From: Euglena gracilis
Lineage: Eukaryota
Assembly (NCBI GenBank): GCA_039621445.1
Contig: CP154954.1
Coordinates: 1,302,001 to 1,366,000, forward strand
DNA length: 64,000 nt
Direction: 5' to 3'
This document shows, one piece after another, positions 1-51,117 of the stretch. Position 1 is the first letter of the stretch. The number at the start of each line of letters is the position of its first letter. Made by a program: the position numbers and the translations under genes. Under the pieces are notes generated by a model. The model did no database searches and was not told the origin of the DNA. It saw only the letters and a list, made by a program, of their open reading frames with translations.

Positions 1-3011
<3,011 letters not shown>

Positions 3012-3161
3012 AATTATTATTGACGTATTGTAAATAATTTTTAACTATATCTTACTTAAAAAGCTTTTATTAATATTTATTTAGTTATGCTTTGTTGAGT
3101 AAACATAATGTTTCCACTTTGTTTTTTTAGTTTGACTACGAAAAATTATAATTTTTTTACA

Positions 3162-4987
3162 ATGACATTAGATGTATCAATTAGTACGTTACGAAGTTGC
3201 TTTTAGTTTATTAGGTATAAGTTAAAATAAAAGATAAGAAATAAAATTTTATTTATGTGTTTTTTTTAAGTTAAGTAAATTTTCCTTAAATTGTATGTTT
3301 TTGGCTATTCATATTAATTAAAAAATTGGTTAATCTAATTGGTTAATCTTAATATTTTCAATAATTTGTTAATAAGTTTAGTAATTTTTCAAGTAGAACG
3401 TAAATAGGTTTTATTTTGGATTTTTTTTTAATAAAGAATAAACTTTTGACATATTTTTATTTAAAATTAAATGTTTAAGCTGTATGTTTTTTTTTACTTG
3501 TACAGTTTTTTAAGAGAAATTTTAGTTCGCTAATATATTTCTTTTTTCATTAAATTCTAGTTTAAATCTTTTTTCTTGAGTATTTATTTTTCAAAAGTTA
3601 ATTTTTTAAATAATTTTCGTTTTTGGGGATTTTATTCTCTTTTTTAAACTTTTCTGTATGAAAAGTAAAATTATTTTATTTTTTGGTAATTGAAATTTAT
3701 TTATTATTTTAGTAGACCAATAAAAGCAAAGAGAATAGGTTTTAATTTAATTTTCTATAAATTTTTATTCTAAAGAAAATTTTACATTTTAGTTTTAATA
3801 AGTCTTGTTTTAGAGTTTTATATAATATAAAACAACCTAACCTTTTTTGCGATAGTATGTTGAAAAGCTAAATAAATCAACAATTTTTGTTTAGTTTGTG
3901 AATAAAATTTTCAAAATTGAATTTATATTTTCTACTTTACTTATTCCTGAAAGAGTTTTTTGGGAAAAACGAGTTGAAGAAATTATTCTTCCTACTTTAA
4001 GTGGTCAGATGGGGGTTCTTAAAGACCATGTGTGACACATTATTAAAACGTTTGTTAATTTTATTAATTATAATTTTTTGATAAATGCTTGTTTGAGATT
4101 TAACTTTACTTTTACTTTTAACCATATTAGTTAATTATTTTTATTTTCTGCATTAACATTTTGTTTGTGCGTGGTAGCTTTGAATATTTTCTAAAATTTA
4201 AAATTTACTTTTTTATAAATTATTTTTTATAAATAAGAAAAATTTAAAATTTTAAGATTAATATAATTTATAGTTTATTTTGAAAATGTATATTTAAGTC
4301 TTGTTTTAGAAGAATATATTTAAACTGTTATTTTATAACTATTTAAAGTGTTTTTACATGTTTTAGAAAAAATTTTTAATAGTTTTAATTTTTTTAAAAA
4401 CAATACTTGATAAACATAATTTGTAAGATATAATATTTGAATCTAAAAAATTTTTAAATTTGTATGCAATGGTAAGGAATGTGTATTTTTATGTAAATTA
4501 TTTACAAAATTTTTGTTTTTTTTTAGTACTTTTGATTCTATCACAATTTAGTTTTAGTCAATTTTTAAGCAAATTTTAAAAGATTTTTTGTTAAATGCCG
4601 TATGAGATTTAAATCTCCCGTACTGTATTGTTGGGGAAAAAATTAACTTAATTTATTAATTTTTAATGATAAATTTTTTTCTATCTAAATATTCCAATAT
4701 TGACTGGATTAGATATAGGTATAATCTTAGTTCGTCAAAAGTCTTCTTCCGATTGGACTAGTTTGGTTGTAACAGGAGGTTTTGCATTAATTAATAGCAA
4801 TAACGTTACTATATTAGTCAATGAAGCAGAATTTGGTTCCGAAATTAATGTAGAACAAGCACAGATTTCTTATAATTCATCTAAACATGCTTTAGAAATG
4901 AATAAAGATATTAAGAGAAAATTTGAATTAACTTTAAATTTAAAAAAAGCACGTGCTAGATTCCAGGTCACTCAACTTAAAAAGTAG
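3162..4987 (+). CDS. atpE: ATP synthase CF1 epsilon subunit; exons 3162-3183, 3941-4029, 4691-4987
   Basis: Spliced MTLDVSIIIPERVFWEKRVEEIILPTLSGQMGVLKDHIPILTGLDIG...; follows atpB. Confidence 0.95.
3184..3940 (+). other. atpE intron 1, group II twintron (internal intron ~3525-3926 inside domain VI of the external intron)
   Basis: Domain V-like AAGCTGTATG...TTGTACAGTT at ~3477-3507, then a second 5' splice-like GTTCG at 3525 and TTTAT end at 3926; removing it restores a short domain VI; fits the known Euglena atpE twintron. Confidence 0.7.
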
Positions 4988-5258
4988 TTTAATTTATTGT
5001 TTTATTAAATTATACGTTTTTAATTTATGTTGATAGATTTTTTATAATAAAAATTTTTTCAATTATTAATAGTTTAAAATTATGTTTGTTTTATAGTATA
5101 TTATTACTTAAACTATAAAATAGTGTAGTTAGTGTATTGAAACTGACAGTTTGATTTAAACGTTTTTGGTTTCGATTCACTCATTTATTCTTTAATTTAA
5201 TTAAATTAAAATTCAAAATTCGACTTTTAGGCAAGAATTTAAGTAAAAAAAAAATGTT

Positions 5259-5975
5259 ATGTTATCCGAATATGATAATCTAAACTTTGAAAAGAGCGTT
5301 GAAGGTAAAGGTTCTTTTCTTAATAAAAACCAAATAGAATCTTATTTGGCCTTACGAAAAAAGAAAGGAAAAATATATAATTTAGATTCTGAATTTTGGC
5401 GTGCTTTTTGTGAATCTCACAATATTAATATGGAATCTATTTTAAATTTATATATATCGAATAAATCTATTTCTAGTAAGGATTGTTAAAATACTATCTT
5501 ATATTGTTGGACGAGATTACCTTAAAGGCAGAACCGCTAACTTTTATGCTTACATTAAAGTGGATAAACGATTAGATACGCGCTCGACTCGTTTTTTGGA
5601 TTTGAGATTAAAAAAAGACTGTGAAGAGGTTACAGTTTGTGGAAATTATAGCGCAGCTAAGTCAGAAGAATATTCTATCGATTATATAATAAAAATGGTT
5701 TTAAGTCAGAGAGCATATGGTATACAAGATTTTACTGATTCGTTAGTAATTAGTCCGTGTTTGTCTGTAAAATTAGATGATCATTACCAAATGTTGTCAC
5801 TTTGGAACCGCATGATAAAACTAGCTGAAAAAGGCAATATTTTTAAGGCTCTATCTCTTTTAAAAAAAGAAAGGCCAGATTACTACATCAAAAAATTTGT
5901 AGCAATTAAAAAAATTTAAATGCAATTTTTATGTCTTTTAAAAATGATAAAAAATTAAATAGGGAGGTTTTATGA
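5259..5975 (+). pseudogene. Degenerate geminivirus-like Rep paralog (HUH-fold plus oligomerisation domain, no helicase), frameshifted
   Basis: Frame of the 5560 ORF is open from 5446: ILSYIVGRDYLKGRTANFYAYIKVDKRLDTRSTRFLDL...GNYSAAKSEEYSIDYIIK...KALSLLKKERPDYYIKKFVAIKKNLNAIF (tail from mirror copy); matches Rep GRS, motif III and central domain; 76-aa ORF at 5259 is the probable N-terminus. Confidence 0.7.
5961..5967 (+). promoter_or_regulatory. Shine-Dalgarno site for the Rep gene
   Basis: AGGGAGG 4 nt upstream of ATG 5972. Confidence 0.7.
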
Positions 5976-7195
5976 ATTTATTAAATACGAACAAAAATAA
6001 CATTGATAATAATATGAGACGTATTTCATCAAAAAAAGTTTTTTTAACCTATTCTTATTGTTCCGCAGATCTTTCAGAAATTTTAAATTTTTTTAAAAAT
6101 AAATTTGAAGTAAAATATGGACTAGTTGATTATGCGTTGGTAAGATAGTTTCATAAAACCGGATACCCTCATGTACACTCATATTTCGTTTTTATTAAAA
6201 AAATAGACACTAAGGCAGCAAATTTTTTTGATATATATGTTGATTCTAAAACTTATAGTGCATATGTTCAAACAGTTAATAACGAGAAAGATTTGTTGGA
6301 CTATTTAACAAAACAAATATTTAACTTTGTAGATGCTTCAAAAAATTTCATGGCTTCTCCATCAATTTTGAAAAAGTATGGTAAATATTTTGAATATTGT
6401 CCATTAGAAGAAAGGATGATTGAATTAGCAAAAAAAGGAGAGATAGCGGATGCTATGTTGTTGTTTGAAAAAGAAAAACCTTCTGAATTTGTATATAAAG
6501 GTGATGCTATTGAAAAACGACTTAGAAACATATATTTAAGCACAAGGTTAGGAGTTAAAGCAAAAATTAATTTTAATGACTATGTGATACCTCGAGATTT
6601 AAGGTGGATGTTAGACATTTATGAATCTTATCTGAATATGGGTGAAAATAAAGTATTTTTAATTTTAGGCGGTGAGCTTAGGTATTTAATAGATTTTTTT
6701 GAATCTTATTTGCAATTCAAAGGCTTTTATCTTCTAGTAGTTAAGGAAGCTAAGGATTTACTGCGATTTAGAAATACTTGTCATTACGATGCGATAATTT
6801 TTTCAGACTCTAGCATTTTAGAGTATCAAAATGTAGATGAGCTAAAAAATTTATTTAACTCTTTAGAAACAACGTTAAAAGTTCATAATCGAAAAAATAG
6901 TGTTAAAGTACTTTTATCTCCTGCTTTACCAAAAGCTATAATGTCGTCAAAACCTTATAAAGTTTTGGAACAATTTTTTAAAGAAAAAGGAATTGAAATG
7001 GAAGGCATACTACCTTATCAATTAAATGCCGATGATAAATTACTTCCCCCACATTTTCATAATTCAGAAATGGAAAAATCAAAGGAATACAGAGAACTTG
7101 AAAGTAAAACTAAAGTTTATATTCAAGAATTCTTAAAAAAAGCTAATATGAATGATGAAAATGAAGGAAATGATAATCAAAAAAATACTAATTAA
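5972..7195 (+). pseudogene. Geminivirus/pCRESS-like replication initiator Rep, 407 codons with one internal TAG (6146-6148); the 300-aa ORF is its C-terminal part
   Basis: ATG 5972 is in frame with 6293; motif I KVFLTYSYC (6041-6052), motif II R*FHKTGYPHVH, GRS-like NFFDI, motif III DYLTK (6302-6313), central AMLLFEKEKPSEFV...RLRNIY, eroded Walker B YDAIIFSD. Confidence 0.85.
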
Positions 7196-7273
7196 TACGT
7201 TTTTATTATATGTTATTATTTTATTAGTAATAAAAATATTACTAATTTGTTATTTGTTATAAATATGTTATAT

Positions 7274-7452
7274 TTATTCTAGGGCGGAAAATTAGTGGTA
7301 ACATTAATTTGTTAAAAAATGCCTCTTGACATCAAAAGTTCGAATTAATTTTGAAAAGCATGAGGCATTTTTTTAACAATTATTTTAAGTTTAATAAAAC
7401 TTAAAATTTTTTTTTAATAAATTTTTTTTTTTCTGTCCGCCCGGAGAATAAA
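7274..7452. repeat. Nested inverted repeats and hairpins downstream of Rep
   Basis: TTGTTAAAAAATGCCTC (7309-7325) pairs with GAGGCATTTTTTTAACAA (7362-7379); ATTTTAAGTTT/AAACTTAAAAT (7382-7407); outer TTATTCTAGGGCGGA pairs imperfectly with TCCGCCCGGAGAATAA. Confidence 0.8.
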
Positions 7453-7532
7453 AAAATTTAGAAAATTATTGCTCTATTATTTTTGGGAGAATAAAATGAA
7501 CAATTCAAAAACAAAACTTCAAAAAAAAAAAT

Positions 7533-7585
7533 AAAGTTCGCTGAGAATAAAATACCAGCGGACACGTTTTTGTTATTTTTTGTTA
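7533..7585 (+). repeat. Hairpin direct repeat, copy 1
   Basis: AAAGTTCGCTG-AGAATAAAATAC-CAGCGGAC-ACGTTTTTGTTATT. Confidence 0.85.
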
Positions 7586-7802
7586 TAAAGTTGTGATTAA
7601 AATCATTATAAATATTATTACTAGTATAATTATTATCAAATTAATTTTTATTTTATTGCTAACTTGTTATTAAATTGTTATTAAATAGCTAATTTGTTGT
7701 ATGAGCATTAAGCGTTAAATTAATTGGGTAGGTCAACAATAAACTATTGTTGAAAGAATATAGTTATAGTTAATTGGACAAATTTTTTATGGGAGAATAA
7801 TT

Positions 7803-9533
7803 ATGGTTCAAAAATTAAGAAAAAAATACAAATTCAAAATTAACACCACAAGTTCGAGATATTATGGTAGTTATAATATAACACGTAATTGGAGAATTTT
7901 AATAAGGACAAATTTTCAATCTTTAATAGAAATGGATTATTCTTTTATTAAAAAATGGCATGCAATAATAAACGACGATAAAATTTCTTTTATTATGTAT
8001 ACCATATGCAAATACGTGGATTTTCAGAAAGAAACCGATATTTTTATTAAAGCTTACCTCGAACTAAAGAAAAATTGTCGGCCAAAATATTTAGAAGACT
8101 TGTTTAGTTTTGATAAAAATACAATTATAAGTATCGAAAAAGCTAAAGGGGATAGTCCTGGCAATGTTGGTGGTTTTATTATTAATTGCCGAGACCCCGA
8201 AGAGGAACTTTTTTGGAATAGAATACCGCGCTATGAATCTAAAAATAATAACTGTTTAAGTTTTAAATTTATTACTCAATATAATTTAATTGAGAAAGCA
8301 AGGGGAAATTATTTTCTACCTAAAATTTTCCTTGAAGTTTTAAAAAAAGGTCCGGAAGAGATTGATAAAGAAAAAAGAAAAACTGTTTTAGCAAAAAAAA
8401 TCGATAATGACGAAGAAATAGAAAAAATAGAAATAAAAAAAGAAAAACAATTTGAAATTAAGAGCTTTTTCGAGGATTCAGAATTTTTAGCAATAACCGA
8501 AAAATATACAAAAAAGTGTGAGGATTTAATAAATATTAACAATAAAGGGAAAAAAATAAGAGATTTATTTTGCAATTATATTTTAGAATTATTAATTCTA
8601 GAAATAAATATTTTAAATTCTCAAAGTAAACCAAAATATTCGGATGTTTTTATTTGTACTTATAAAAAAAAAAAGAACAATAATGAAATAGAGTGGTATT
8701 TTAATTGGATGTCTATTGATAGAATCCTTAAACAATTTTTATATAAATCAATTAAACCGTGGCAAAATAAAAATATTGACGATATTAATCAAGGAGAAAT
8801 TTATAATATAATTACTAATAAATCACTTACAGATAATACAATAAATTCTGTTAAACGTTCTTTTCAAAATAGATTGAATGAAAATGTTAACTTAACGAAC
8901 GTAAGAAAATCATACAAAAAAATAAAATTTGTTTCGTTTAGTTTAACTAAGTTTTATAGCAATGAAAATAACGTTTTTTTTGTAAAATTAAAAATTGAGA
9001 TTTTCGTATGTGATAGTTTTAATACTAGCCTTATAAGAGATTTTCTTAATTTAATTACAAGTGAAGATATTCTATGGATAATGTATTCGGTAGAACCTGT
9101 AATATTAATACATACTGATTCCAAAGATAAAATTCTTCAAGAGACATATCTAAAATTAGAATGTAAAGCAGTAAAATCACAGCTATATTTAAATATATAT
9201 GTGATATTTGATGAAAAAAGAGTATGGACTAAAAATTTAGTTGAAAGCTTTTTTTCTACTATTAAAAATGGTAAAATTTTAAATATATCAAACGTACCAA
9301 AACTAGGAGGTCTTTGTTTTTGTTATGTTCTTAATAACCTTTTGCTAAAAGCAAATAAAAAAAATCAATTAGCTGAAATTAAAATATATCAGCATACAAA
9401 ATATGAAATTCCTTCCAAATATAAAATCAAATTTATCAACGAATCGCCATTATTTTTAAGAGAATATACTGGGTCTTTGAACTTCTTATATATTTTACTT
9501 AGTATGTTACTAGATAATATAACTAATAAATAA
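7803..9533 (+). CDS. Hypothetical 576-aa protein of the atpE-rbcL island, possibly with degenerate HUH/Rep-like domains
   Basis: Long intronless ORF, same translation in both copies; GGGAG SD-like site at 7791-7795. Confidence 0.75.
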   Translation: MVQKLRKKYKFKINTTSSRYYGSYNITRNWRILIRTNFQSLIEMDYSFIKKWHAIINDDKISFIMYTICKYVDFQKETDIFIKAYLELKKNCRPKYLEDLFSFDKNTIISIEKAKGDSPGNVGGFIINCRDPEEELFWNRIPRYESKNNNCLSFKFITQYNLIEKARGNYFLPKIFLEVLKKGPEEIDKEKRKTVLAKKIDNDEEIEKIEIKKEKQFEIKSFFEDSEFLAITEKYTKKCEDLININNKGKKIRDLFCNYILELLILEINILNSQSKPKYSDVFICTYKKKKNNNEIEWYFNWMSIDRILKQFLYKSIKPWQNKNIDDINQGEIYNIITNKSLTDNTINSVKRSFQNRLNENVNLTNVRKSYKKIKFVSFSLTKFYSNENNVFFVKLKIEIFVCDSFNTSLIRDFLNLITSEDILWIMYSVEPVILIHTDSKDKILQETYLKLECKAVKSQLYLNIYVIFDEKRVWTKNLVESFFSTIKNGKILNISNVPKLGGLCFCYVLNNLLLKANKKNQLAEIKIYQHTKYEIPSKYKIKFINESPLFLREYTGSLNFLYILLSMLLDNITNK

Positions 9534-9566
9534 TTAAGTTATTATATTATTCCATTAAAATTTTTT

Positions 9567-9754
9567 AAAGTCCACCAAGAATAAAATTCTAGTGGACACG
9601 TTTGTTATTAAATTGTTATTATTAGTATAATTATTATAAAATTATTTAATTAAAAATATAAATAATTTAGTTAGCTAGTTGTTATTAAAATGTTATTAAC
9701 TTTTTTAAAGTTCACCGAGAATAAAATCCTAGTGGACACGTTTTTGTTATTTTT
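9567..9754 (+). repeat. Hairpin direct repeat, copies 2 and 3 (140 bp apart)
   Basis: AAAGTCCACCA-AGAATAAAATTC-TAGTGGAC-ACGTTTGTTATT at 9567 and AAAGTTCACCG-AGAATAAAATCC-TAGTGGAC-ACGTTTTTGTTATT at 9707. Confidence 0.85.
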
Positions 9755-9788
9755 ATTGGTTTTAGTTTAAGGTCAGCAGGAACAACTT

Positions 9789-9977
9789 TTATAACCTTTT
9801 ATTATGGTATCGTACTTTAATAAATCTAAATTTAAGGAATTCTGCAACATATTCTAAAGATAAAGGGCATTTTGGAGATGTAAGAAATACTTTCCTAGCT
9901 GACAGTCGGTATTTAGCGTTTTTACCAACGTTTTTTTCAAATTTATTAAAGGAACTTTTCTTTGATTTTACTTTTTT
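9789..9977 (-). pseudogene. N-terminal Rep fragment (motif I), no start codon
   Basis: Minus-strand translation KNAKYRLSARKVFLTSPKCPLSLEYVAEFLK resembles geminiviral FRLxAKNYFLTYPKCSLxKEE. Confidence 0.75.
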
Positions 9978-10013
9978 CTAACGTAATTTTTTGATTAGTT
10001 TTATTTGGAGTTA

Positions 10014-10065
10014 TAACCTATTATTAATCTATTAACCTATTATTAATCTATTAACTTATTATTAT
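10014..10065 (+). repeat. 19-bp tandem repeat (~2.7 copies), iteron-like
   Basis: TAACCTATTATTAATCTAT at 10014 and 10033, partial copy at 10052. Confidence 0.8.
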
Positions 10066-10400
10066 ATTATTATTATTATTAGGGGGCAATTTACTTAGCA
10101 AATTCTCGGTCGTTACTGACAAAACGGGGTATGGTTTTGTAAACATTAACCACGCAATAACACAATCACAATATTGCACTAATAACTTAAAAAAGTCACT
10201 CACATGATATTATTACTAAATAAATGTAATCTGCCTCAGGCAAACGGTTTTGAACTATGTGTATGAAAAGTAATGAGAATTCTTTACAATTAAAGGGATG
10301 TAACATGTAAATCGTTAAATACGACTGCATACAACTCCTATTTAAGATACTATGTACGGGAAATAAGCAAAAAATAATACATTATTCAAGGAAAACTACT

Positions 10401-10610
10401 ATGGTACGTAAAAAAGATATATTAAATGAAAGGTTAAAAAATTACACAATAGAAACAGACGTGTCCCGTAAGGTGAGGCAAAAAGTTGCGTTCCGTTTAG
10501 CGGCTAAAAACATATTTTTGATGTATAATAAAGTTTCATCTTCATTTACTGTGGAGGATATTAGTTATTCTTTACTTGAGAAGCTGAAGCCATATGGTGT
10601 ATTATCGTAG
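10401..10610 (+). pseudogene. Truncated Rep N-terminus (69 aa, motif I)
   Basis: AFRLAAKNIFLMYNK matches the Rep motif I context; AAGGA SD-like site upstream; stops before motif II. Confidence 0.7.
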
Positions 10611-10802
10611 ATACGTATATTGACTGTGAAACTAACGTAACTGACTTATCTAGAGTAAAAGAAACTAAACGTGAGTATTATATTTTTAGACCTCAAATAG
10701 ACAAAAATTAGTAGCAAAACTTATTAATAATAATAATGTAAATTATCTATAAATAACTGTAAAGTGATTTTTCGAATATAATTTTTATTTTATTATTAAA
10801 AT

Positions 10803-12960
<2,158 letters not shown>

Positions 12961-13149: not shown

Positions 13150-17329
<4,180 letters not shown>

Positions 17330-17521
17330 ATTTTAATAATAAAATAAAAATTATATTCGAAAAATCACTTTACAGTTATTTATAGATAATTTACATTATT
17401 ATTATTAATAAGTTTTGCTACTAATTTTTGTCTATTTGAGGTCTAAAAATATAATACTCACGTTTAGTTTCTTTTACTCTAGATAAGTCAGTTACGTTAG
17501 TTTCACAGTCAATATACGTAT

Positions 17522-17731
17522 CTACGATAATACACCATATGGCTTCAGCTTCTCAAGTAAAGAATAACTAATATCCTCCACAGTAAATGAAGATGAAACT
17601 TTATTATACATCAAAAATATGTTTTTAGCCGCTAAACGGAACGCAACTTTTTGCCTCACCTTACGGGACACGTCTGTTTCTATTGTGTAATTTTTTAACC
17701 TTTCATTTAATATATCTTTTTTACGTACCAT
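17522..17731 (-). pseudogene. Truncated Rep N-terminus, mirror copy
   Basis: Same translation as 10401-10610. Confidence 0.7.
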
Positions 17732-18154
17732 AGTAGTTTTCCTTGAATAATGTATTATTTTTTGCTTATTTCCCGTACATAGTATCTTAAATAGGAGTTG
17801 TATGCAGTCGTATTTAACGATTTACATGTTACATCCCTTTAATTGTAAAGAATTCTCATTACTTTTCATACACATAGTTCAAAACCGTTTGCCTGAGGCA
17901 GATTACATTTATTTAGTAATAATATCATGTGAGTGACTTTTTTAAGTTATTAGTGCAATATTGTGATTGTGTTATTGCGTGGTTAATGTTTACAAAACCA
18001 TACCCCGTTTTGTCAGTAACGACCGAGAATTTGCTAAGTAAATTGCCCCCTAATAATAATAATAATATAATAATAAGTTAATAGATTAATAATAGGTTAA
18101 TAGATTAATAATAGGTTATAACTCCAAATAAAACTAATCAAAAAATTACGTTAG

Positions 18155-18343
18155 AAAAAAGTAAAATCAAAGAAAAGTTCCTTTAATAAATTTGAAAAAA
18201 ACGTTGGTAAAAACGCTAAATACCGACTGTCAGCTAGGAAAGTATTTCTTACATCTCCAAAATGCCCTTTATCTTTAGAATATGTTGCAGAATTCCTTAA
18301 ATTTAGATTTATTAAAGTACGATACCATAATAAAAGGTTATAA
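18155..18343 (+). pseudogene. N-terminal Rep fragment, mirror copy
   Basis: YRLSARKVFLTSPKCPLSLE starts at 18221. Confidence 0.75.
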
Positions 18344-18598
18344 AAGTTGTTCCTGCTGACCTTAAACTAAAACCAATAAAAATAACAAAAACGTGTCCAC
18401 TAGGATTTTATTCTCGGTGAACTTTAAAAAAGTTAATAACATTTTAATAACAACTAGCTAACTAAATTATTTATATTTTTAATTAAATAATTTTATAATA
18501 ATTATACTAATAATAACAATTTAATAACAAACGTGTCCACTAGAATTTTATTCTTGGTGGACTTTAAAAAATTTTAATGGAATAATATAATAACTTAA

Positions 18599-20329
18599 TT
18601 ATTTATTAGTTATATTATCTAGTAACATACTAAGTAAAATATATAAGAAGTTCAAAGACCCAGTATATTCTCTTAAAAATAATGGCGATTCGTTGATAAA
18701 TTTGATTTTATATTTGGAAGGAATTTCATATTTTGTATGCTGATATATTTTAATTTCAGCTAATTGATTTTTTTTATTTGCTTTTAGCAAAAGGTTATTA
18801 AGAACATAACAAAAACAAAGACCTCCTAGTTTTGGTACGTTTGATATATTTAAAATTTTACCATTTTTAATAGTAGAAAAAAAGCTTTCAACTAAATTTT
18901 TAGTCCATACTCTTTTTTCATCAAATATCACATATATATTTAAATATAGCTGTGATTTTACTGCTTTACATTCTAATTTTAGATATGTCTCTTGAAGAAT
19001 TTTATCTTTGGAATCAGTATGTATTAATATTACAGGTTCTACCGAATACATTATCCATAGAATATCTTCACTTGTAATTAAATTAAGAAAATCTCTTATA
19101 AGGCTAGTATTAAAACTATCACATACGAAAATCTCAATTTTTAATTTTACAAAAAAAACGTTATTTTCATTGCTATAAAACTTAGTTAAACTAAACGAAA
19201 CAAATTTTATTTTTTTGTATGATTTTCTTACGTTCGTTAAGTTAACATTTTCATTCAATCTATTTTGAAAAGAACGTTTAACAGAATTTATTGTATTATC
19301 TGTAAGTGATTTATTAGTAATTATATTATAAATTTCTCCTTGATTAATATCGTCAATATTTTTATTTTGCCACGGTTTAATTGATTTATATAAAAATTGT
19401 TTAAGGATTCTATCAATAGACATCCAATTAAAATACCACTCTATTTCATTATTGTTCTTTTTTTTTTTATAAGTACAAATAAAAACATCCGAATATTTTG
19501 GTTTACTTTGAGAATTTAAAATATTTATTTCTAGAATTAATAATTCTAAAATATAATTGCAAAATAAATCTCTTATTTTTTTCCCTTTATTGTTAATATT
19601 TATTAAATCCTCACACTTTTTTGTATATTTTTCGGTTATTGCTAAAAATTCTGAATCCTCGAAAAAGCTCTTAATTTCAAATTGTTTTTCTTTTTTTATT
19701 TCTATTTTTTCTATTTCTTCGTCATTATCGATTTTTTTTGCTAAAACAGTTTTTCTTTTTTCTTTATCAATCTCTTCCGGACCTTTTTTTAAAACTTCAA
19801 GGAAAATTTTAGGTAGAAAATAATTTCCCCTTGCTTTCTCAATTAAATTATATTGAGTAATAAATTTAAAACTTAAACAGTTATTATTTTTAGATTCATA
19901 GCGCGGTATTCTATTCCAAAAAAGTTCCTCTTCGGGGTCTCGGCAATTAATAATAAAACCACCAACATTGCCAGGACTATCCCCTTTAGCTTTTTCGATA
20001 CTTATAATTGTATTTTTATCAAAACTAAACAAGTCTTCTAAATATTTTGGCCGACAATTTTTCTTTAGTTCGAGGTAAGCTTTAATAAAAATATCGGTTT
20101 CTTTCTGAAAATCCACGTATTTGCATATGGTATACATAATAAAAGAAATTTTATCGTCGTTTATTATTGCATGCCATTTTTTAATAAAAGAATAATCCAT
20201 TTCTATTAAAGATTGAAAATTTGTCCTTATTAAAATTCTCCAATTACGTGTTATATTATAACTACCATAATATCTCGAACTTGTGGTGTTAATTTTGAAT
20301 TTGTATTTTTTTCTTAATTTTTGAACCAT
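18599..20329 (-). CDS. 576-aa hypothetical protein, mirror copy
   Basis: Same translation as 7803-9533. Confidence 0.75.
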   Translation of the reverse strand: MVQKLRKKYKFKINTTSSRYYGSYNITRNWRILIRTNFQSLIEMDYSFIKKWHAIINDDKISFIMYTICKYVDFQKETDIFIKAYLELKKNCRPKYLEDLFSFDKNTIISIEKAKGDSPGNVGGFIINCRDPEEELFWNRIPRYESKNNNCLSFKFITQYNLIEKARGNYFLPKIFLEVLKKGPEEIDKEKRKTVLAKKIDNDEEIEKIEIKKEKQFEIKSFFEDSEFLAITEKYTKKCEDLININNKGKKIRDLFCNYILELLILEINILNSQSKPKYSDVFICTYKKKKNNNEIEWYFNWMSIDRILKQFLYKSIKPWQNKNIDDINQGEIYNIITNKSLTDNTINSVKRSFQNRLNENVNLTNVRKSYKKIKFVSFSLTKFYSNENNVFFVKLKIEIFVCDSFNTSLIRDFLNLITSEDILWIMYSVEPVILIHTDSKDKILQETYLKLECKAVKSQLYLNIYVIFDEKRVWTKNLVESFFSTIKNGKILNISNVPKLGGLCFCYVLNNLLLKANKKNQLAEIKIYQHTKYEIPSKYKIKFINESPLFLREYTGSLNFLYILLSMLLDNITNK

Positions 20330-20936
20330 AATTATTCTCCCATAAAAAATTTGTCCAATTAACTATAACTATATTCTTTCAACAATAGTTTATTGTTGAC
20401 CTACCCAATTAATTTAACGCTTAATGCTCATACAACAAATTAGCTATTTAATAACAATTTAATAACAAGTTAGCAATAAAATAAAAATTAATTTGATAAT
20501 AATTATACTAGTAATAATATTTATAATGATTTTAATCACAACTTTATAACAAAAAATAACAAAAACGTGTCCGCTGGTATTTTATTCTCAGCGAACTTTA
20601 TTTTTTTTTTTGAAGTTTTGTTTTTGAATTGTTCATTTTATTCTCCCAAAAATAATAGAGCAATAATTTTCTAAATTTTTTTATTCTCCGGGCGGACAGA
20701 AAAAAAAAAATTTATTAAAAAAAAATTTTAAGTTTTATTAAACTTAAAATAATTGTTAAAAAAATGCCTCATGCTTTTCAAAATTAATTCGAACTTTTGA
20801 TGTCAAGAGGCATTTTTTAACAAATTAATGTTACCACTAATTTTCCGCCCTAGAATAAATATAACATATTTATAACAAATAACAAATTAGTAATATTTTT
20901 ATTACTAATAAAATAATAACATATAATAAAAACGTA

Positions 20937-22160
20937 TTAATTAGTATTTTTTTGATTATCATTTCCTTCATTTTCATCATTCATATTAGCTTTTTTTAAG
21001 AATTCTTGAATATAAACTTTAGTTTTACTTTCAAGTTCTCTGTATTCCTTTGATTTTTCCATTTCTGAATTATGAAAATGTGGGGGAAGTAATTTATCAT
21101 CGGCATTTAATTGATAAGGTAGTATGCCTTCCATTTCAATTCCTTTTTCTTTAAAAAATTGTTCCAAAACTTTATAAGGTTTTGACGACATTATAGCTTT
21201 TGGTAAAGCAGGAGATAAAAGTACTTTAACACTATTTTTTCGATTATGAACTTTTAACGTTGTTTCTAAAGAGTTAAATAAATTTTTTAGCTCATCTACA
21301 TTTTGATACTCTAAAATGCTAGAGTCTGAAAAAATTATCGCATCGTAATGACAAGTATTTCTAAATCGCAGTAAATCCTTAGCTTCCTTAACTACTAGAA
21401 GATAAAAGCCTTTGAATTGCAAATAAGATTCAAAAAAATCTATTAAATACCTAAGCTCACCGCCTAAAATTAAAAATACTTTATTTTCACCCATATTCAG
21501 ATAAGATTCATAAATGTCTAACATCCACCTTAAATCTCGAGGTATCACATAGTCATTAAAATTAATTTTTGCTTTAACTCCTAACCTTGTGCTTAAATAT
21601 ATGTTTCTAAGTCGTTTTTCAATAGCATCACCTTTATATACAAATTCAGAAGGTTTTTCTTTTTCAAACAACAACATAGCATCCGCTATCTCTCCTTTTT
21701 TTGCTAATTCAATCATCCTTTCTTCTAATGGACAATATTCAAAATATTTACCATACTTTTTCAAAATTGATGGAGAAGCCATGAAATTTTTTGAAGCATC
21801 TACAAAGTTAAATATTTGTTTTGTTAAATAGTCCAACAAATCTTTCTCGTTATTAACTGTTTGAACATATGCACTATAAGTTTTAGAATCAACATATATA
21901 TCAAAAAAATTTGCTGCCTTAGTGTCTATTTTTTTAATAAAAACGAAATATGAGTGTACATGAGGGTATCCGGTTTTATGAAACTATCTTACCAACGCAT
22001 AATCAACTAGTCCATATTTTACTTCAAATTTATTTTTAAAAAAATTTAAAATTTCTGAAAGATCTGCGGAACAATAAGAATAGGTTAAAAAAACTTTTTT
22101 TGATGAAATACGTCTCATATTATTATCAATGTTATTTTTGTTCGTATTTAATAAATTCAT
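20937..22160 (-). pseudogene. Geminivirus-like Rep with internal TAG, mirror copy
   Basis: Reverse complement of 5972-7195, same TAG. Confidence 0.85.
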
Positions 22161-22874
22161 AAAACCTCCCTATTTAATTTTTTATCATTTTTAAAAGACA
22201 TAAAAATTGCATTTAAATTTTTTTTAATTGCTACAAATTTTTTGATGTAGTAATCTGGCCTTTCTTTTTTTAAAAGAGATAGAGCCTTAAAAATATTGCC
22301 TTTTTCAGCTAGTTTTATCATGCGGTTCCAAAGTGACAACATTTGGTAATGATCATCTAATTTTACAGACAAACACGGACTAATTACTAACGAATCAGTA
22401 AAATCTTGTATACCATATGCTCTCTGACTTAAAACCATTTTTATTATATAATCGATAGAATATTCTTCTGACTTAGCTGCGCTATAATTTCCACAAACTG
22501 TAACCTCTTCACAGTCTTTTTTTAATCTCAAATCCAAAAAACGAGTCGAGCGCGTATCTAATCGTTTATCCACTTTAATGTAAGCATAAAAGTTAGCGGT
22601 TCTGCCTTTAAGGTAATCTCGTCCAACAATATAAGATAGTATTTTAACAATCCTTACTAGAAATAGATTTATTCGATATATATAAATTTAAAATAGATTC
22701 CATATTAATATTGTGAGATTCACAAAAAGCACGCCAAAATTCAGAATCTAAATTATATATTTTTCCTTTCTTTTTTCGTAAGGCCAAATAAGATTCTATT
22801 TGGTTTTTATTAAGAAAAGAACCTTTACCTTCAACGCTCTTTTCAAAGTTTAGATTATCATATTCGGATAACAT
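22157..22874 (-). pseudogene. Degenerate Rep paralog, mirror copy
   Basis: 138-aa ORF ends NREVL* with an ATGA overlap onto the Rep start; 76-aa ORF upstream. Confidence 0.7.
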
Positions 22875-23145
22875 AACATTTTTTTTTTACTTAAATTCTT
22901 GCCTAAAAGTCGAATTTTGAATTTTAATTTAATTAAATTAAAGAATAAATGAGTGAATCGAAACCAAAAACGTTTAAATCAAACTGTCAGTTTCAATACA
23001 CTAACTACACTATTTTATAGTTTAAGTAATAATATACTATAAAACAAACATAATTTTAAACTATTAATAATTGAAAAAATTTTTATTATAAAAAATCTAT
23101 CAACATAAATTAAAAACGTATAATTTAATAAAACAATAAATTAAA

Positions 23146-24968
23146 CTACTTTTTAAGTTGAGTGACCTGGAATCTAGCACGTGCTTTTTTTAAATTTAAA
23201 GTTAATTCAAATTTTCTCTTAATATCTTTATTCATTTCTAAAGCATGTTTAGATGAATTATAAGAAATCTGTGCTTGTTCTACATTAATTTCGGAACCAA
23301 ATTCTGCTTCATTGACTAATATAGTAACGTTATTGCTATTAATTAATGCAAAACCTCCTGTTACAACCAAACTAGTCCAATCGGAAGAAGACTTTTGACG
23401 AACTAAGATTATACCTATATCTAATCCAGTCAATATTGGAATATTTAGATAGAAAAAAATTTATCATTAAAAATTAATAAATTAAGTTAATTTTTTCCCC
23501 AACAATACAGTACGGGAGATTTAAATCTCATACGGCATTTAACAAAAAATCTTTTAAAATTTGCTTAAAAATTGACTAAAACTAAATTGTGATAGAATCA
23601 AAAGTACTAAAAAAAAACAAAAATTTTGTAAATAATTTACATAAAAATACACATTCCTTACCATTGCATACAAATTTAAAAATTTTTTAGATTCAAATAT
23701 TATATCTTACAAATTATGTTTATCAAGTATTGTTTTTAAAAAAATTAAAACTATTAAAAATTTTTTCTAAAACATGTAAAAACACTTTAAATAGTTATAA
23801 AATAACAGTTTAAATATATTCTTCTAAAACAAGACTTAAATATACATTTTCAAAATAAACTATAAATTATATTAATCTTAAAATTTTAAATTTTTCTTAT
23901 TTATAAAAATAATTTAAAAAAGTAAATTTTAAATTTTAGAAAATATTCAAAGCTACCACGCACAAACAAAATGTTAATGCAGAAAATAAAAATAATTAAC
24001 TAATATGGTTAAAAGTAAAAGTAAAGTTAAATCTCAAACAAGCATTTATCAAAAAATTATAATTAATAAAATTAACAAACGTTTTAATAATGTGTCACAC
24101 ATGGTCTTTAAGAACCCCCATCTGACCACTTAAAGTAGGAAGAATAATTTCTTCAACTCGTTTTTCCCAAAAAACTCTTTCAGGAATAAGTAAAGTAGAA
24201 AATATAAATTCAATTTTGAAAATTTTATTCACAAACTAAACAAAAATTGTTGATTTATTTAGCTTTTCAACATACTATCGCAAAAAAGGTTAGGTTGTTT
24301 TATATTATATAAAACTCTAAAACAAGACTTATTAAAACTAAAATGTAAAATTTTCTTTAGAATAAAAATTTATAGAAAATTAAATTAAAACCTATTCTCT
24401 TTGCTTTTATTGGTCTACTAAAATAATAAATAAATTTCAATTACCAAAAAATAAAATAATTTTACTTTTCATACAGAAAAGTTTAAAAAAGAGAATAAAA
24501 TCCCCAAAAACGAAAATTATTTAAAAAATTAACTTTTGAAAAATAAATACTCAAGAAAAAAGATTTAAACTAGAATTTAATGAAAAAAGAAATATATTAG
24601 CGAACTAAAATTTCTCTTAAAAAACTGTACAAGTAAAAAAAAACATACAGCTTAAACATTTAATTTTAAATAAAAATATGTCAAAAGTTTATTCTTTATT
24701 AAAAAAAAATCCAAAATAAAACCTATTTACGTTCTACTTGAAAAATTACTAAACTTATTAACAAATTATTGAAAATATTAAGATTAACCAATTAGATTAA
24801 CCAATTTTTTAATTAATATGAATAGCCAAAAACATACAATTTAAGGAAAATTTACTTAACTTAAAAAAAACACATAAATAAAATTTTATTTCTTATCTTT
24901 TATTTTAACTTATACCTAATAAACTAAAAGCAACTTCGTAACGTACTAATTGATACATCTAATGTCAT
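23146..24968 (-). CDS. atpE: ATP synthase epsilon subunit, inverted copy
   Basis: Mirror of 3162-4987. Confidence 0.95.
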
Positions 24969-25118
24969 TGTAAAAAAATTATAATTTTTCGTAGTCAAAC
25001 TAAAAAAACAAAGTGGAAACATTATGTTTACTCAACAAAGCATAACTAAATAAATATTAATAAAAGCTTTTTAAGTAAGATATAGTTAAAAATTATTTAC
25101 AATACGTCAATAATAATT

Positions 25119-28168
<3,050 letters not shown>

Positions 28169-32640: not shown

Positions 32641-34700
32641 TTAAACTAATTCTTTCTTAGTTGTATCATCACCTAATTTTTCAAAAGTACCAAATTCAAT
32701 CTCTTCCTCCAAATCAGGGTCAATACCAGCAAGCAAATATTTAAATAAAGTTCTTGCCCCATGCCAAATATGCCCAAAAAAGAAAATTAAAGCAAAAGAC
32801 AAATGACCAAAAGTAAACCAGCCTCTTGGACTACTTCTAAAAACACCATCAGACTGTAAAATAGAACGATTAAAGTCAAAAATTTCTCCAAGCTGAGCAC
32901 GTCGTGCATATCTTTTCACAGTAGCAGGATCATTAAAACTTAAAGTATCGAAACTACCACCGAAGAAACGAACAGTAACGCCTACTTGTTCAATACTATA
33001 TTTAGACTCAGCACGACGAAACGGAATATCGGCACGAACAACACCATTTTGATCTAATAATATTACTGGAAACGTTTCAAAAAAAGTAGGCATACGACGA
33101 ACAAACAATGAATTACCTTCCTTATCAATAAATACTGCATGACCTAACCATGCAGTCGCTATACCATCACCATTATTCATAGGACCAGAACGAAATAATC
33201 CACCTTTTGCTGGATTATTCCCAATATAATCATAAAAAGCTAACTTAGGCGAAATAGCACCCCAAGCTTCTGACAAAGAACAACCATCAGATAAACTAGC
33301 TTGAACACGTCTTTCTACCTGAAAATAACCTTTATCCCATTGGTATCGAGTAGGACCAAATAGCTCAATAGGTGTAGAAGCAGAACCGTACCACATAGTG
33401 CCTGAAACAACAAATGCAGACCAAAAAACCGCAGCTATACTAGAAAGAACAGTTTCAATATTCCCCATACGTAAAAGTACAAACAAGCGTTGAGAAGGGC
33501 GAACTAAAACATGAAATCCACCAGCAATAAGTCCTAAAAGACCTGCAGCAATATGATGCCTTGATAGAAAATAAATTATTATATTTCCTCAAAAAAACCG
33601 TGCATGCAAAATAAAAATGCACACGGCTTTAATTAATAATAAATTTATTAATCAATTTTCCTAATACATTTAGGACAAATTTAAAGATTTTTAAAATACC
33701 TAAACAAATAATTATTAAATCTTTAAACTCAACTTTTTCCAAAATTTTGTAAATATAAATATCATATTCGAATCAAAGTATAAAAAAAAATTTTGAAAAA
33801 CAATTAAAGATATTGTCATACACAAAAAAGAAAAACAATACAAAATTAAAAAAATAGCTCTTTAAACACAACCGCACAAAACAAAAAAGTTTTATCAAGT
33901 TAAAAACTGCAATATTATTGCAAAAAATATACTAACCTAAAACAAAATTATTTAGGAAAAAAAATCTTTAAAATTAAAATTGAAAAAGGTAAAAGTAAGA
34001 AAAGTAAAACTTTTAACTAAGTATGAACTTTTTTCAACTCGCAAAAAGCAATTCCACGAGCATAACATAAATCCGCAAAATCAACAGCTACCCCAAGAAT
34101 TAAACATCAATACTATGAAAGTAACTAATCTCGGTAAAGAAACTACAAATTATATATCAAGGACTTTTAGTGTGATTTAAGTCAATAACCGTTTAAATCA
34201 TCCCCTAAAAAAACGACAAAATGTCAAACTTTGTTGCTAATGAAATTCGGGGGACACACTTATCCACAATTTTGCTAAAAAATTAATCTTATTAGAAGAA
34301 AAATTAAAAAATTATACAATTATAAATTAACTTATGGGATAGCCAATATTTAGAAACCAATTTAATTACAGTTAAAAAATTAAATAAGTTATAAAACGCA
34401 AAATTTCAATAAAATAAAGGTTTTAATTGTAATAATTTCTACAAATAAAATAAAAAACTTAAACGATAGGTGTAAACCATAGGATCAGTGTAAGACCAAA
34501 CAAAAAAAAACAGAAAAAGTTTAACAGAGAAGAAACAGAACCCACAGAACTCAGGACAAAAACGCAAAACCCAAATAACAAAAAAAAAAATACGAGAGAA
34601 AAAAGATGTCACTCAACACCAAGGGGAACGTGTCAAAAACAAACACCTTGGCGCCACAGGAGGAACGGCAAAACAGGAAGAGCAGGGAAAACGAGAACTG
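32641..34700 (-). CDS. psbB: CP47, partial inverted copy, degraded toward the fold-back
   Basis: Last exon readable with small indels; upstream exons garbled. Confidence 0.9.
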
Positions 34701-34960: not shown

Positions 34961-37117
34961 CCGTATGTTTTAAGTGGGAGTGCGATTCGTTTTTAATGTT
35001 CTTGTAATAATTTTATATAGTAAAGAGAGTTTTTATTAACATTTTGTTCAATTAGGTGAAAAACCTTTTATTTTATTGAAATTATTGCGTTATCAATAAG
35101 AACGATAACTTATTTAATTTTTTAACTGTAAAAAATTAACGATTTTTGGATAGATAATCTAAATATTGGCTATGCCATAGTTATATATTTTCTAATTAAA
35201 TTTTGTATAATTTTTAATTTTTCTTCTAATAAGATTAATTTTTTTTTTTTTTTTTGGATAAGTGTGTCCTCAAGAATTTCATTTAGCAACAAAAAGCAAC
35301 GAAATAATTTAGTTTCTATCTTTGACATTTTTTGATATGTCTATTTTTAACTTTTTTAGAGGGGATGATTTAAACGGAAAAATTTTTTATTAATTTTTAT
35401 TGACTTAAATCACACTTATAAAAGTATCAAAATTATATTTTGATATATAAGTATTTGTTAAAATACAAGTACTTTATAAGTGAGTAGTTAAATGATTTAA
35501 AAATTTCATATTTAATTTCGGATGAAAGATTTTTAATCTATTCTTGCAAATTGAACCTGTTATTCCTTCTTGGGGTGCTGAAGGTTTTGATCCGTATAAT
35601 GTAGGTGGAATTGCTTCTTTGCGAGTTGTAAAAGTTCATACTTATGAGTTAAAAGTTTTTAACTTTTTCTTACTTTAATACCTTTTATTCAATTTTTAAT
35701 TTTTAGTAATAAAAAGCCAGGTAGATTTTTTTACTAAATAGCCATTTTTGTTTTAGGTTAGTTATATTTTTTGCAATAATATTTGCAGTTTATTAATATT
35801 CTTGATAAAAACTTTTTTTACAGTTTTGTGAGAGTTTGGCTGTTAAAGAAGCATAAAATTTATTTTATTTTATTTTGTTATTGTAATTTTTATTTTTTGT
35901 GTATGAAAATTATAACTAATTAATTGTATTTTTTTACAAAATTTTTTTTTACACTTTGATTCGAAATTTTTTCCTAAGTTTAGTATTTACGAATATTTTG
36001 TAAAAAAAGTTGAGTTAAAGATTTAAAAATAACTTATTTGTTTAGGTATTTTTAAATCTTTAAAATTTGTCCTAAATTTAGTATTAGGAAAAATTGATTA
36101 ATAATTTTATTATTAATTAAAGCCGTGTGCATTTTTATTTTGCATGCACGGTTTTTTTGAGGAAATATAATAATTTATTTTCTATCAAGGCATCATATTG
36201 CTGCAGGTCTTTTAGGACTTATTGCTGGTGGATTTCATGTTTTAGTTCGCCCTTCTCAACGCTTGTTTGTACTTTTACGTATGGGGAATATTGAAACTGT
36301 TCTTTCTAGTAGTATAGCTGCGGTTTTTTGGTCTGCATTTGTTGTTTCAGGCACTATGTGGTACGGTTCTGCTTCTACACCTATTGAGCTATTTGGTCCT
36401 ACTCGATACCAATGGGATAAAGGTTATTTTCAGGAAGAAATAGAAAGACGTGTTCAAGCTAGTTTATCTGATGGTTGTTCTTTGTCAGAAGCTTGGGGTG
36501 CTATTTCGCCTAAGTTAGCTTTTTATGATTATATTGGGAATAATCCAGCAAAAGGTGGATTATTTCGTTCTGGTCCTATGAATAATGGTGATGGTATAGC
36601 GACTGCATGGTTAGGTCATGCAGTATTTATTGATAAGGAAGGTAATTCATTGTTTGTTCGTCGTATGCCTACTTTTTTTGAAACGTTTCCAGTAATATTA
36701 TTAGATCAAAATGGTGTTGTTCGTGCCGATATTCCGTTTCGTCGTGCTGAGTCTAAATATAGTATTGAACAAGTAGGCGTTACTGTTCGTTTCTTCGGTG
36801 GTAGTTTCGATACTTTAAGTTTTAATGATCCTGCTACTGTGAAAAGATATGCACGACGTGCTCAGCTTGGAGAAATTTTTGACTTTAATCGTTCTATTTT
36901 ACAGTCTGATGGTGTTTTTAGAAGTAGTCCAAGAGGCTGGTTTACTTTTGGTCATTTGTCTTTTGCTTTAATTTTCTTTTTTGGGCATATTTGGCATGGG
37001 GCAAGAACTTTATTTAAATATTTGCTTGCTGGTATTGACCCTGATTTGGAGGAAGAGATTGAATTTGGTACTTTTGAAAAATTAGGTGATGATACAACTA
37101 AGAAAGAATTAGTTTAA
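34790..37117 (+). CDS. psbB: CP47, partial (3' exons)
   Basis: [23 protein letters not shown] exon at ~35550-35620; final exon HHIAAG...KKELV. Confidence 0.93.
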
Positions 37118-41589: not shown

Positions 41590-44638
<3,049 letters not shown>

Positions 44639-44788
44639 AATTATTATTGACGTATTGTAAATAATTTTTAACTATATCTTACTTAAAAAGCTTTTATTAA
44701 TATTTATTTAGTTATGCTTTGTTGAGTAAACATAATGTTTCCACTTTGTTTTTTTAGTTTGACTACGAAAAATTATAATTTTTTTACA

Positions 44789-47919: not shown

Positions 47920-48069
47920 TGTAAAAAAATTATAATTTTTCGTAGTCAAACTAAAAAAACAAAGTGGAAACATTATGTTTACTCAACAAAGCATAACTAA
48001 ATAAATATTAATAAAAGCTTTTTAAGTAAGATATAGTTAAAAATTATTTACAATACGTCAATAATAATT

Positions 48070-51117
<3,048 letters not shown>

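Follow-up and report, generated by a model that had tools for sequence, protein, structure and literature searches.

The window analyzed here, a 64-kb stretch of Euglena gracilis DNA (64,000 nt of contig CP154954.1), carries between its atpE and rbcL genes a reading frame for a geminivirus-type replication initiator protein (Rep) that is interrupted by a single stop codon. On the plus strand, at positions 5972 to 7195, the frame comprises 407 sense positions bounded by an ATG at 5972 and a TAA at 7193 to 7195. Its sole internal stop is a TAG at codon 59 (6146 to 6148, plus strand), and its parts correspond to an HUH nuclease domain, a central domain, and a P-loop domain of the superfamily 3 (SF3) helicase type. 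A Shine-Dalgarno (SD)-like GGGAGG (5962 to 5967, plus strand) lies 4 nt 5' of the ATG. This hexamer occurs in the window only there and in the mirror copy of the site; with 2.29 copies expected at random, its count is unremarkable and only its position is notable. A mechanical search for open reading frames (ORFs) had reported a 300-aa ORF at 6293 to 7195, which is the Rep frame with a start 107 codons after the ATG at 5972, and the 281-aa product beginning at Met127 (ATG ORF from 6350) is on record as protein P0001. A first-pass annotation, made by a model from the letters of the DNA, had placed an SD-preceded ATG at 5972 in frame with the 6293 ORF and had taken the 300-aa ORF to be only the C-terminal part of the protein. 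Both proposals were borne out: the translation matches letter for letter, and full-length homologues align in one stretch across the stop. The mirror arm of the window carries a second, identical copy of the frame on the minus strand (20937 to 22160), again interrupted by the TAG, here at 21984 to 21986.

The Rep frame is open far beyond chance. Over the Rep stretch, it contains 1 stop; the other two plus-strand frames contain 38 and 62, and the three minus-strand frames contain 38, 24, and 27. Base shuffles of the stretch (20,000) gave a mean of 38.5 stops with a minimum of 17. The third-position G+C content of the frame is 0.18, and that of the plastid genes of the window ranges from 0.16 to 0.23.

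For homology searches, the frame was translated with X at codon 59. Residues 17 to 115 matched the Pfam family PF00799 (Gemini_AL1) with 32.2 bits, exceeding the curated cutoff of 24, and the same family matched 11 of 13 aligned members of the Rep family studied here; Pfam holds no known family over residues 120 to 407. HMMER retrieved 355 homologues at E ≤ 1e-3, 77 of them at ≤ 1e-10 and 8 at ≤ 1e-30. The proteins P0002, P0003, P0004, and P0007 (428 to 574 aa) aligned in a single stretch from Rep residue 15 or 16 to residue 357 to 402, across the stop. Identity was 30 to 34% for these four proteins and 29 to 32% (E values of 1e-43 to 1e-29) for the small circular replicons with P0002 to P0010, and the best full-length relatives show the motifs FLTYPxC, HxH, YxxK, GxxGxGK[TS], and DD. 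The N termini are also alike, as seen when FRISSKKLFLTY of P0009 is set against MRRISSKKVFLTY of the window Rep. A family hidden Markov model (HMM) was then trained on 145 relatives, with the window and its closest kin excluded, and applied to the six-frame translation of the window. It matched the full Rep frame with 243.8 bits over profile positions 8 to 392 (E = 1.2e-75; E values from this model refer to the search of the window only).

The fold of the read-through protein points the same way. A profile of 13 family members matched the solved Rep nuclease domains 6q1m (E = 9e-25), 6we0 (1.1e-23), 1l2m (1.3e-21), and 7vg8 (2.5e-21). An AlphaFold2 model computed from 64 aligned sequences reached a mean predicted local distance difference test (pLDDT) score of 89.5, with 95 to 98 for the residue blocks from 21 to 130; the model leans on the family alignment and so shows fit to the family fold rather than production of a protein. 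It superimposed on the DNA-bound Rep of tomato yellow leaf curl virus (TYLCV; 7vg8_A) with a template modeling (TM) score of 0.85 and a root mean square deviation of 2.0 Å over 114 columns, and on Rep of wheat dwarf virus (WDV) with TM scores of 0.81 to 0.84. Matches were also obtained with the SF3 helicases simian virus 40 T antigen, papillomavirus E1, and adeno-associated virus Rep, and, in a library of viral models, with whole Reps of geminiviruses, genomoviruses, and uncultivated circular DNA viruses over ~350 to 400 columns, with E values down to 1.2e-18. The nuclease residues are thus predicted to fold as an HUH domain. The assignment of the N-terminal ~115 aa to an HUH Rep, on which the first-pass annotation had staked its claim, held in every comparison (PF00799 at 32.2 bits, profile E value of 9e-25, TM score of 0.85). 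Together, sequence and fold identify the 5972-to-7195 frame as a full-length geminivirus-type Rep.

The state of the nuclease motifs was read from a MAFFT alignment of the window frame with 149 relatives; in the counts given here, denominators are the relatives that have a residue at the column. Motif I (FLTY, residues 24 to 27; 6041 to 6052, plus strand) is kept, with T26 shared by 125/127 homologues and Y27 by 117/127. Motif II (H-V-H, residues 67 to 69; 6170 to 6178, plus strand) is likewise kept (H67 in 131/139, H69 in 135/140), as is motif III, YLTK with the catalytic Tyr (residues 111 to 114; 6302 to 6313, plus strand), where Y111 is shared by 135/139 homologues and K114 by 134/140. Between motifs II and III lies a block that we take to be the geminivirus Rep sequence. 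Its FFD is kept, and the H-G-N of the family (H in 110/139, G in 96/139, and N in 103/139 homologues) is replaced by S-A-Y (6257 to 6265, plus strand); the solved WDV chain has H-P-N there. The earlier description of FLTY, HVH, and YLTK as intact and in order therefore stands; the block between motifs II and III is conserved only in part. The acidic residue found four places past the catalytic Tyr in 74/140 homologues (D or E) is Q in the window.

The column of the in-frame TAG is occupied by Glu in 132/137 homologues. P0020, the closest relative at this place (48/85 identical, 56%), has VREF at the place of VR*F in the window. Mn is bound by Glu48, His57, and Gln59 in porcine circovirus 2, and in wheat dwarf virus by Glu110 together with His59 and His61 (PMC7826260). 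By its place, the stop column would be equivalent to Glu48 of the circovirus protein, and its Glu may or may not act as a metal ligand in this family. A one-off read error at the TAG is unlikely, because 8 public contigs yield the 58-aa piece that ends at this codon. Since atpE terminates with TAG, the codon functions as a stop in the DNA of the window; recoding of TAG was accordingly rejected as unlikely. An intron around the stop was rejected too, as the alignment with relatives runs through without inserted residues. The first-pass annotation had also suggested looking for orthologues free of the stop, and none was present among the searched proteins of 223 to 713 aa or of 30 to 222 aa. Among the sequencing runs listed, 20 rows from 13 studies contain at least half of the sequence words of 5400 to 9600, three of them possibly representing the source sample; no RNA run is among the listed rows that share at least half of these words.

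In the P-loop domain, all four ATPase signatures are replaced, which the first-pass annotation had not noted, and the modeled fold still matches SF3 helicases. The Walker A motif, GxxGxGK[TS] in the family, has degenerated to GGELRYLI (6668 to 6691, plus strand), with L and I in place of K (110/117 homologues) and T/S (108/115). Walker B reads IIFSD (6794 to 6808, plus strand); its first Asp (91/103 homologues) has become S, and its second (96/103) is kept. Motif C and the Arg finger, spanned by 6944 to 7003 (plus strand), are both lost, with S-S at the motif C Asn (103/109 homologues) and M-E in place of the R-R present in 81/98 and 86/98 homologues. Removal of the stop alone would thus not restore a normal Rep. 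P0006, which is 73% identical to the window Rep in this part, likewise lacks the P-loop (GSEHRYL, compared with GGELRYL in the window) and has V-N at Walker B, so the loss of the P-loop predates the split between the two.

Close full-length relatives reside on contigs of 1.5 to 2.7 kb. When an alignment of five full-length relatives was used as the query against a viral contig collection, 35 of 151 candidate stretches encoded Rep relatives. Terminal direct repeats were present in 24 of 36 related loci, which indicates circular genomes. The canonical nonamer TA[AG]TATTAC was present in 25 of the 36, and many of the loci have a second large ORF. L002 is a circle of ~1883 nt with a G+C content of 0.32 and Rep as its only long ORF, and L004 and L007 are similar; L002, L003, and L004 carry TAATGTTAC in an origin-like stem-loop. 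L001 has a second large ORF that crosses the contig ends and is taken to be a candidate capsid gene. In an IQ-TREE tree of 36 rows, the window Rep, P0005, and P0020 formed a clade with a Shimodaira-Hasegawa-like approximate likelihood ratio support of 100 and a stem of 1.56 changes per column. This clade was nested in a group with P0002 to P0004, P0007, P0008, and L002, and the nearest rows outside it include L002 and P0007. Of the three closest relatives, only fragments are known: a single 1379-nt contig carries both P0005 (89 aa) and P0006 (114 aa), and a 1024-nt contig carries P0020 (91 aa). The shortness of these contigs may partly explain why the closest relatives are piecemeal. Scans of metagenome contigs, prokaryote genomes, and viral contigs with the window protein, and of plasmids with tblastn, returned no DNA of close relatives; prokaryote genomes, plasmids, and metagenome contigs gave no relatives at all, and the single-protein queries P0003, P0008, and P0009 returned nothing from the viral contigs.

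The atpE-rbcL spacer holds more Rep-derived DNA than the gene itself. In each arm of the window, the family HMM found four such stretches, namely, the full gene and three fragments. Remnant A (5485 to 5916, plus strand) ends 55 nt upstream of the full gene, covers profile positions 51 to 183 with 95.1 bits (E = 1.7e-30), and is 26% identical to Rep residues 51 to 182 (E = 3e-10). Its HxH motif is replaced (NFYAY), its YIIK is kept, and it gives no Pfam match. The other two fragments comprise the motif I region only: YRLSARKVFLTSPKCPLSLEYV at 9819 to 9944 on the minus strand (20.4 bits, E = 8.6e-8, with a weak Gemini_AL1 match at E = 0.082) and FRLAAKNIFLMYNK at 10470 to 10607 on the plus strand (10.8 bits, E = 6.8e-5; many loci match it weakly in their motif I region). 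Three separate Rep N termini imply that at least three gene copies once lay in the spacer. When remnant A was constrained to group with the window clade in the tree, the log-likelihood was 4.62 higher and the approximately unbiased test did not reject this placement (P = 0.624), so that duplication in place and separate entry are not told apart. Tandem Rep genes also occur among the related viral contigs: L003 (474 to 1613 and 1975 to 3171), L027, and L029 carry two or three per circle or concatemer, an arrangement that recalls the tandem of remnant A and Rep. Just 5' of remnant A, an 80-codon open frame (5247 to 5489, plus strand) belongs to no family and gives no match to the Rep profile.

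Remnant A and Rep are bracketed as a unit by a diverged direct repeat with a spacing of 2183 nt. One copy (5003 to 5094, plus strand) is the 3' flank of atpE; the other (7186 to 7277, plus strand) overlaps the last Rep codons and a 3' hairpin. The two are identical at 65 of 92 positions, compared with 52 to 55 for the best chance match in 12 simulated sequences. The hairpin at 7225 to 7246 with AATATTAC was considered as an origin and rejected, as its 8-mer was seen 12 times against 11.5 expected and the hairpin falls within the diverged copy of the atpE 3' flank. A TAATGTTAC nonamer lies on the minus strand at 7298 to 7306, 103 nt past the end of Rep; its position downstream of Rep, on the strand opposite to the gene, is that seen in L002. 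It occurs in the window only there and at the mirror site, with 1.41 copies expected by chance. It sits just outside the 2183-nt bracket, with a stem of 6 A/T pairs (-1.8 kcal/mol), and is at most a weak candidate for a vestige of an origin.

We read 5972 to 7195 as a decaying relic of an integrated Rep-encoding circular replicon, with a probability of about 0.7. The stretch would be the whole gene for a rolling-circle initiator of a family found on circular Rep-encoding replicons of ~1.9 to 2.7 kb. DNA of such a replicon would have been inserted between atpE and rbcL in a euglenoid-type plastid genome, either more than once or in a single entry followed by duplication. The near-invariant Glu shortly ahead of the HUH histidines would have given way to a nonsense codon, and the ATPase domain would have kept its fold while losing every catalytic signature. 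The source was probably a Rep-only circle, and the Rep DNA appears to have been integrated rather than vertically inherited. With a stop at a near-invariant Glu and the ATPase signatures lost, the window Rep most likely no longer initiates replication.

Several observations weigh against a simple old pseudogene. Apart from the TAG, the frame is fully open in DNA of 23 to 27% G+C (1 stop, with ~38 expected) and otherwise spotless; its third-position G+C content is plastid-like, and it has stayed open along the stem of 1.56. The three nuclease motifs and the SD-like GGGAGG ahead of the ATG are intact, which would mean either that decay is very recent or that the frame was kept by selection. The P-loop had already been lost in the ancestor shared with P0006, and the frame has remained open since; an open frame along so long a stem may point to a time when the protein functioned with its ATPase inactive. 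As to integration from a free circle, no junction was seen, no free-form contig appeared in the scans of metagenome contigs, prokaryote genomes, and viral contigs, and the count of the nonamer adjoining Rep is not above chance. Judged by its sequence, the gene is a putative pseudogene. Possibly the protein functioned for some time with no ATPase activity; alternatively, the post-stop part may be in use even now.

The latter idea can be put as an alternative in its own right, namely, that the post-stop ORF (300 aa with a TTG start from 6293, or 281 aa with an ATG start from 6350) is translated alone and that the central and dead AAA+-like domains are kept for a nonenzymatic role, such as DNA binding or oligomerization, the nuclease being dispensable. 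It would account for the 348 stop-free codons past the TAG, where the other frames have 24 to 62 stops, and for a frame that stayed open although its ATPase motifs had gone by the time the P0006 lineage branched off; at ~27% divergence, however, an open frame could survive neutrally by luck. The central part is 79/89 identical to P0005 and the P-loop part 74/101 identical to P0006 (Fisher P = 0.0096), but this rate difference comes largely from a 9-residue tail and is not robust. The 281-aa product is on record, and the diverged copy of the atpE 3' flank, hairpin included, overlaps the 3' end of the gene. Against this, the closest relative has the region in at least 2 pieces, P0005 and P0006, which are separated by 16 residues, and its tail diverges past residue ~302. 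Moreover, no Pfam family covers residues 120 to 407, and expression of the product is hypothetical. On balance, we consider a retained C-terminal product unlikely.

Markedly less probable still is an initiator that remains active, made as a 407-residue protein by read-through of the TAG or from heteroplasmic or strain-specific copies free of the stop. Such a protein would nick an origin with only its nuclease at work and rely on a helicase of the host, and HUH initiators without a helicase of their own exist among plasmids. The intact motifs I, II, and III with the catalytic Tyr, the SD-like site, and the TAATGTTAC nonamer placed as in L002 would all suit it. However, TAG terminates atpE in the same DNA, the codon is present in both copies of the window and ends the 58-aa piece on the 8 public contigs, and the searched protein collections contain no intact orthologue. 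Moreover, the residue lost is the nearly invariant Glu (132/137), H-G-N is gone, Q stands four places past the catalytic Tyr, where 74/140 homologues have D or E, the nonamer count is at the level of chance, and the hairpin is weak. Finally, a chance resemblance in A+T-rich DNA, or an unrelated gene interrupted by an intron, might be entertained in a window whose euglenoid-type plastid genes are rich in introns. This is refuted by the score of the family HMM, from which both the window and its closest kin had been excluded (243.8 bits, E = 1.2e-75, positions 8 to 392), by the passage of the alignment through the stop without inserted residues, and by shuffles that never gave fewer than 17 stops; we give it practically no weight.

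Beyond the relic of an integrated replicon that we favor, one may speculate that euglenoid plastids harbored in the past, and perhaps harbor at present, a lineage of Rep-only rolling-circle plasmids peculiar to them. In such plasmids the nuclease would be kept, the helicase would serve as an inert scaffold while plastid helicases are used, and the atpE-rbcL spacer, with at least 3 Rep N termini and one internal fragment, would be a recurrent landing site. We regard this scenario as doubtful; if true, it would provide the first trace of replicons of the circular Rep-encoding single-stranded DNA (CRESS) type inside a secondary green plastid.

The window Rep resembles those of the Geminiviridae in the order and identity of FLTY, HxH, and YxxK and in the nuclease fold (TM scores of 0.81 to 0.85; 7vg8 and 1l2m for TYLCV, 6q1m and 6we0 for WDV), and it shares the two-domain layout with an SF3-type P-loop domain seen in whole Reps of geminiviruses and genomoviruses. 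Unlike the geminivirus protein, it is broken by a TAG at a near-invariant Glu, has lost all ATPase signatures as well as the H-G-N that in the solved WDV chain is H-P-N, and lies in plastid DNA without an adjoining capsid gene. Further counterparts are the uncultivated small circular replicons (L002, L004, and L007; P0002 to P0010), in which the same family occurs at full length; L002, for example, is an A+T-rich circle of ~1.9 kb with Rep alone, and L002 to L004 use TAATGTTAC in place of the canonical nonamer. The Reps of these circles are uninterrupted and keep GxxGxGK[TS], DD, N, and RR, whereas the window Rep does not. The circles are free molecules with a G+C-rich origin hairpin, whereas the copy in the window is degenerate, forms part of a chromosome, and belongs to a clade with a long stem.

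Plastid-borne Rep-like ORFs have already been published for a green-algal plastome: the available text of that report describes orf300 and orf432 of Pediastrum duplex as similar to the Rep of circular single-stranded DNA viruses (PMC5437862). By this description, the two are adjacent Rep-like plastid ORFs, in a green-algal host. Replicases of red-algal plasmids are likewise described, in the accessible part of another report, as related to geminivirus Rep, with homologues in nuclear and organellar genomes (PMC4814812); as described, they are geminivirus-like and reside on small algal plasmids of the red-algal lineage. We found no report of a geminivirus-type Rep in euglenoid plastids in open papers and preprints, which mostly exclude the older euglenoid genome papers. 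Foreign genes are rare in plastid genomes. The complete Rep and its three fragments would mark repeated entry, or duplication, of circular Rep replicons in a euglenoid-type plastid, and the broken Rep would be a genetic fossil of the past entry of such replicons into this plastid lineage. An orphan ORF of 281 or 300 aa is thereby explained as the C-terminal part of a Rep, and anonymous environmental circles of ~2 kb are tied to a possible algal or organellar setting. The window also offers a natural example of a Rep with a dead ATPase in a frame that stayed open; what is known of how Rep proteins work is not changed.

Around the spacer, the gene order of the window is petB, atpB, atpE, and then rbcL. 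Pfam matches place exons of atpB at 1660 to 3011, of atpE at 3895 to 4035 and 4673 to 4987, and of rbcL at 14105 to 14311 and 14682 to 15104 (minus strand). The stretch 11733 to 11936 reads like the start of rbcL, which we presume from its motif, as it has no Pfam match. By this gene order, the host DNA is of the euglenoid plastid type: the order petB-atpB-atpE-rbcL is given as cluster I of euglenoid plastid genomes in the available text of a comparative study (PMC5572947).

The window consists largely of long inverted and direct repeats. Positions 1 to 12960 are the reverse complement of 15171 to 28129, forming a giant palindrome whose 2.2-kb center contains the rbcL exons; rbcL breaks off at the left arm. 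Blocks of petB-atpB-psbB recur three or four times in both orientations, as in the arms 43961 to 46222 and 46486 to 48747, which are only 263 nt apart. The palindromic structure could represent either a rearranged plastid molecule or an artifact of assembly or long-read fold-back. The arms differ by one A, with A7 at 5908 to 5914 and A8 at 22218 to 22225, where the additional A extends the frame of remnant A by a few codons; this difference looks like a long-read homopolymer error or slippage. Two matches to the Rfam group II intron family (33558 to 33631, minus strand, and 36118 to 36191, plus strand; 40.1 bits, gathering score of 40) lie beside psbB exons and are mirrored copies.

ORF576 is a frame of 576 codons at 7803 to 9533 (plus strand; mirror copy at 18599 to 20329, minus strand) with an SD-like GGGAG ahead of its ATG; it separates the Rep gene from the two N-terminal Rep fragments. 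Pfam, NCBIfam, and PHROGs hold no family for it, the searches returned no homologue but itself and no atlas match, and it bears no likeness to the ORFs of the related circles; its single-sequence fold was unusable (pLDDT of 32.9). An element of ~49 nt flanks ORF576 in three copies, at 7532 to 7580, 9566 to 9614, and 9706 to 9754. Each copy can form a 6-bp hairpin with an A-rich loop (GTTCGC/GCGGAC, GTCCAC/GTGGAC, and GTTCAC/GTGGAC), and, as judged by eye, both sides of the stem change between copies.

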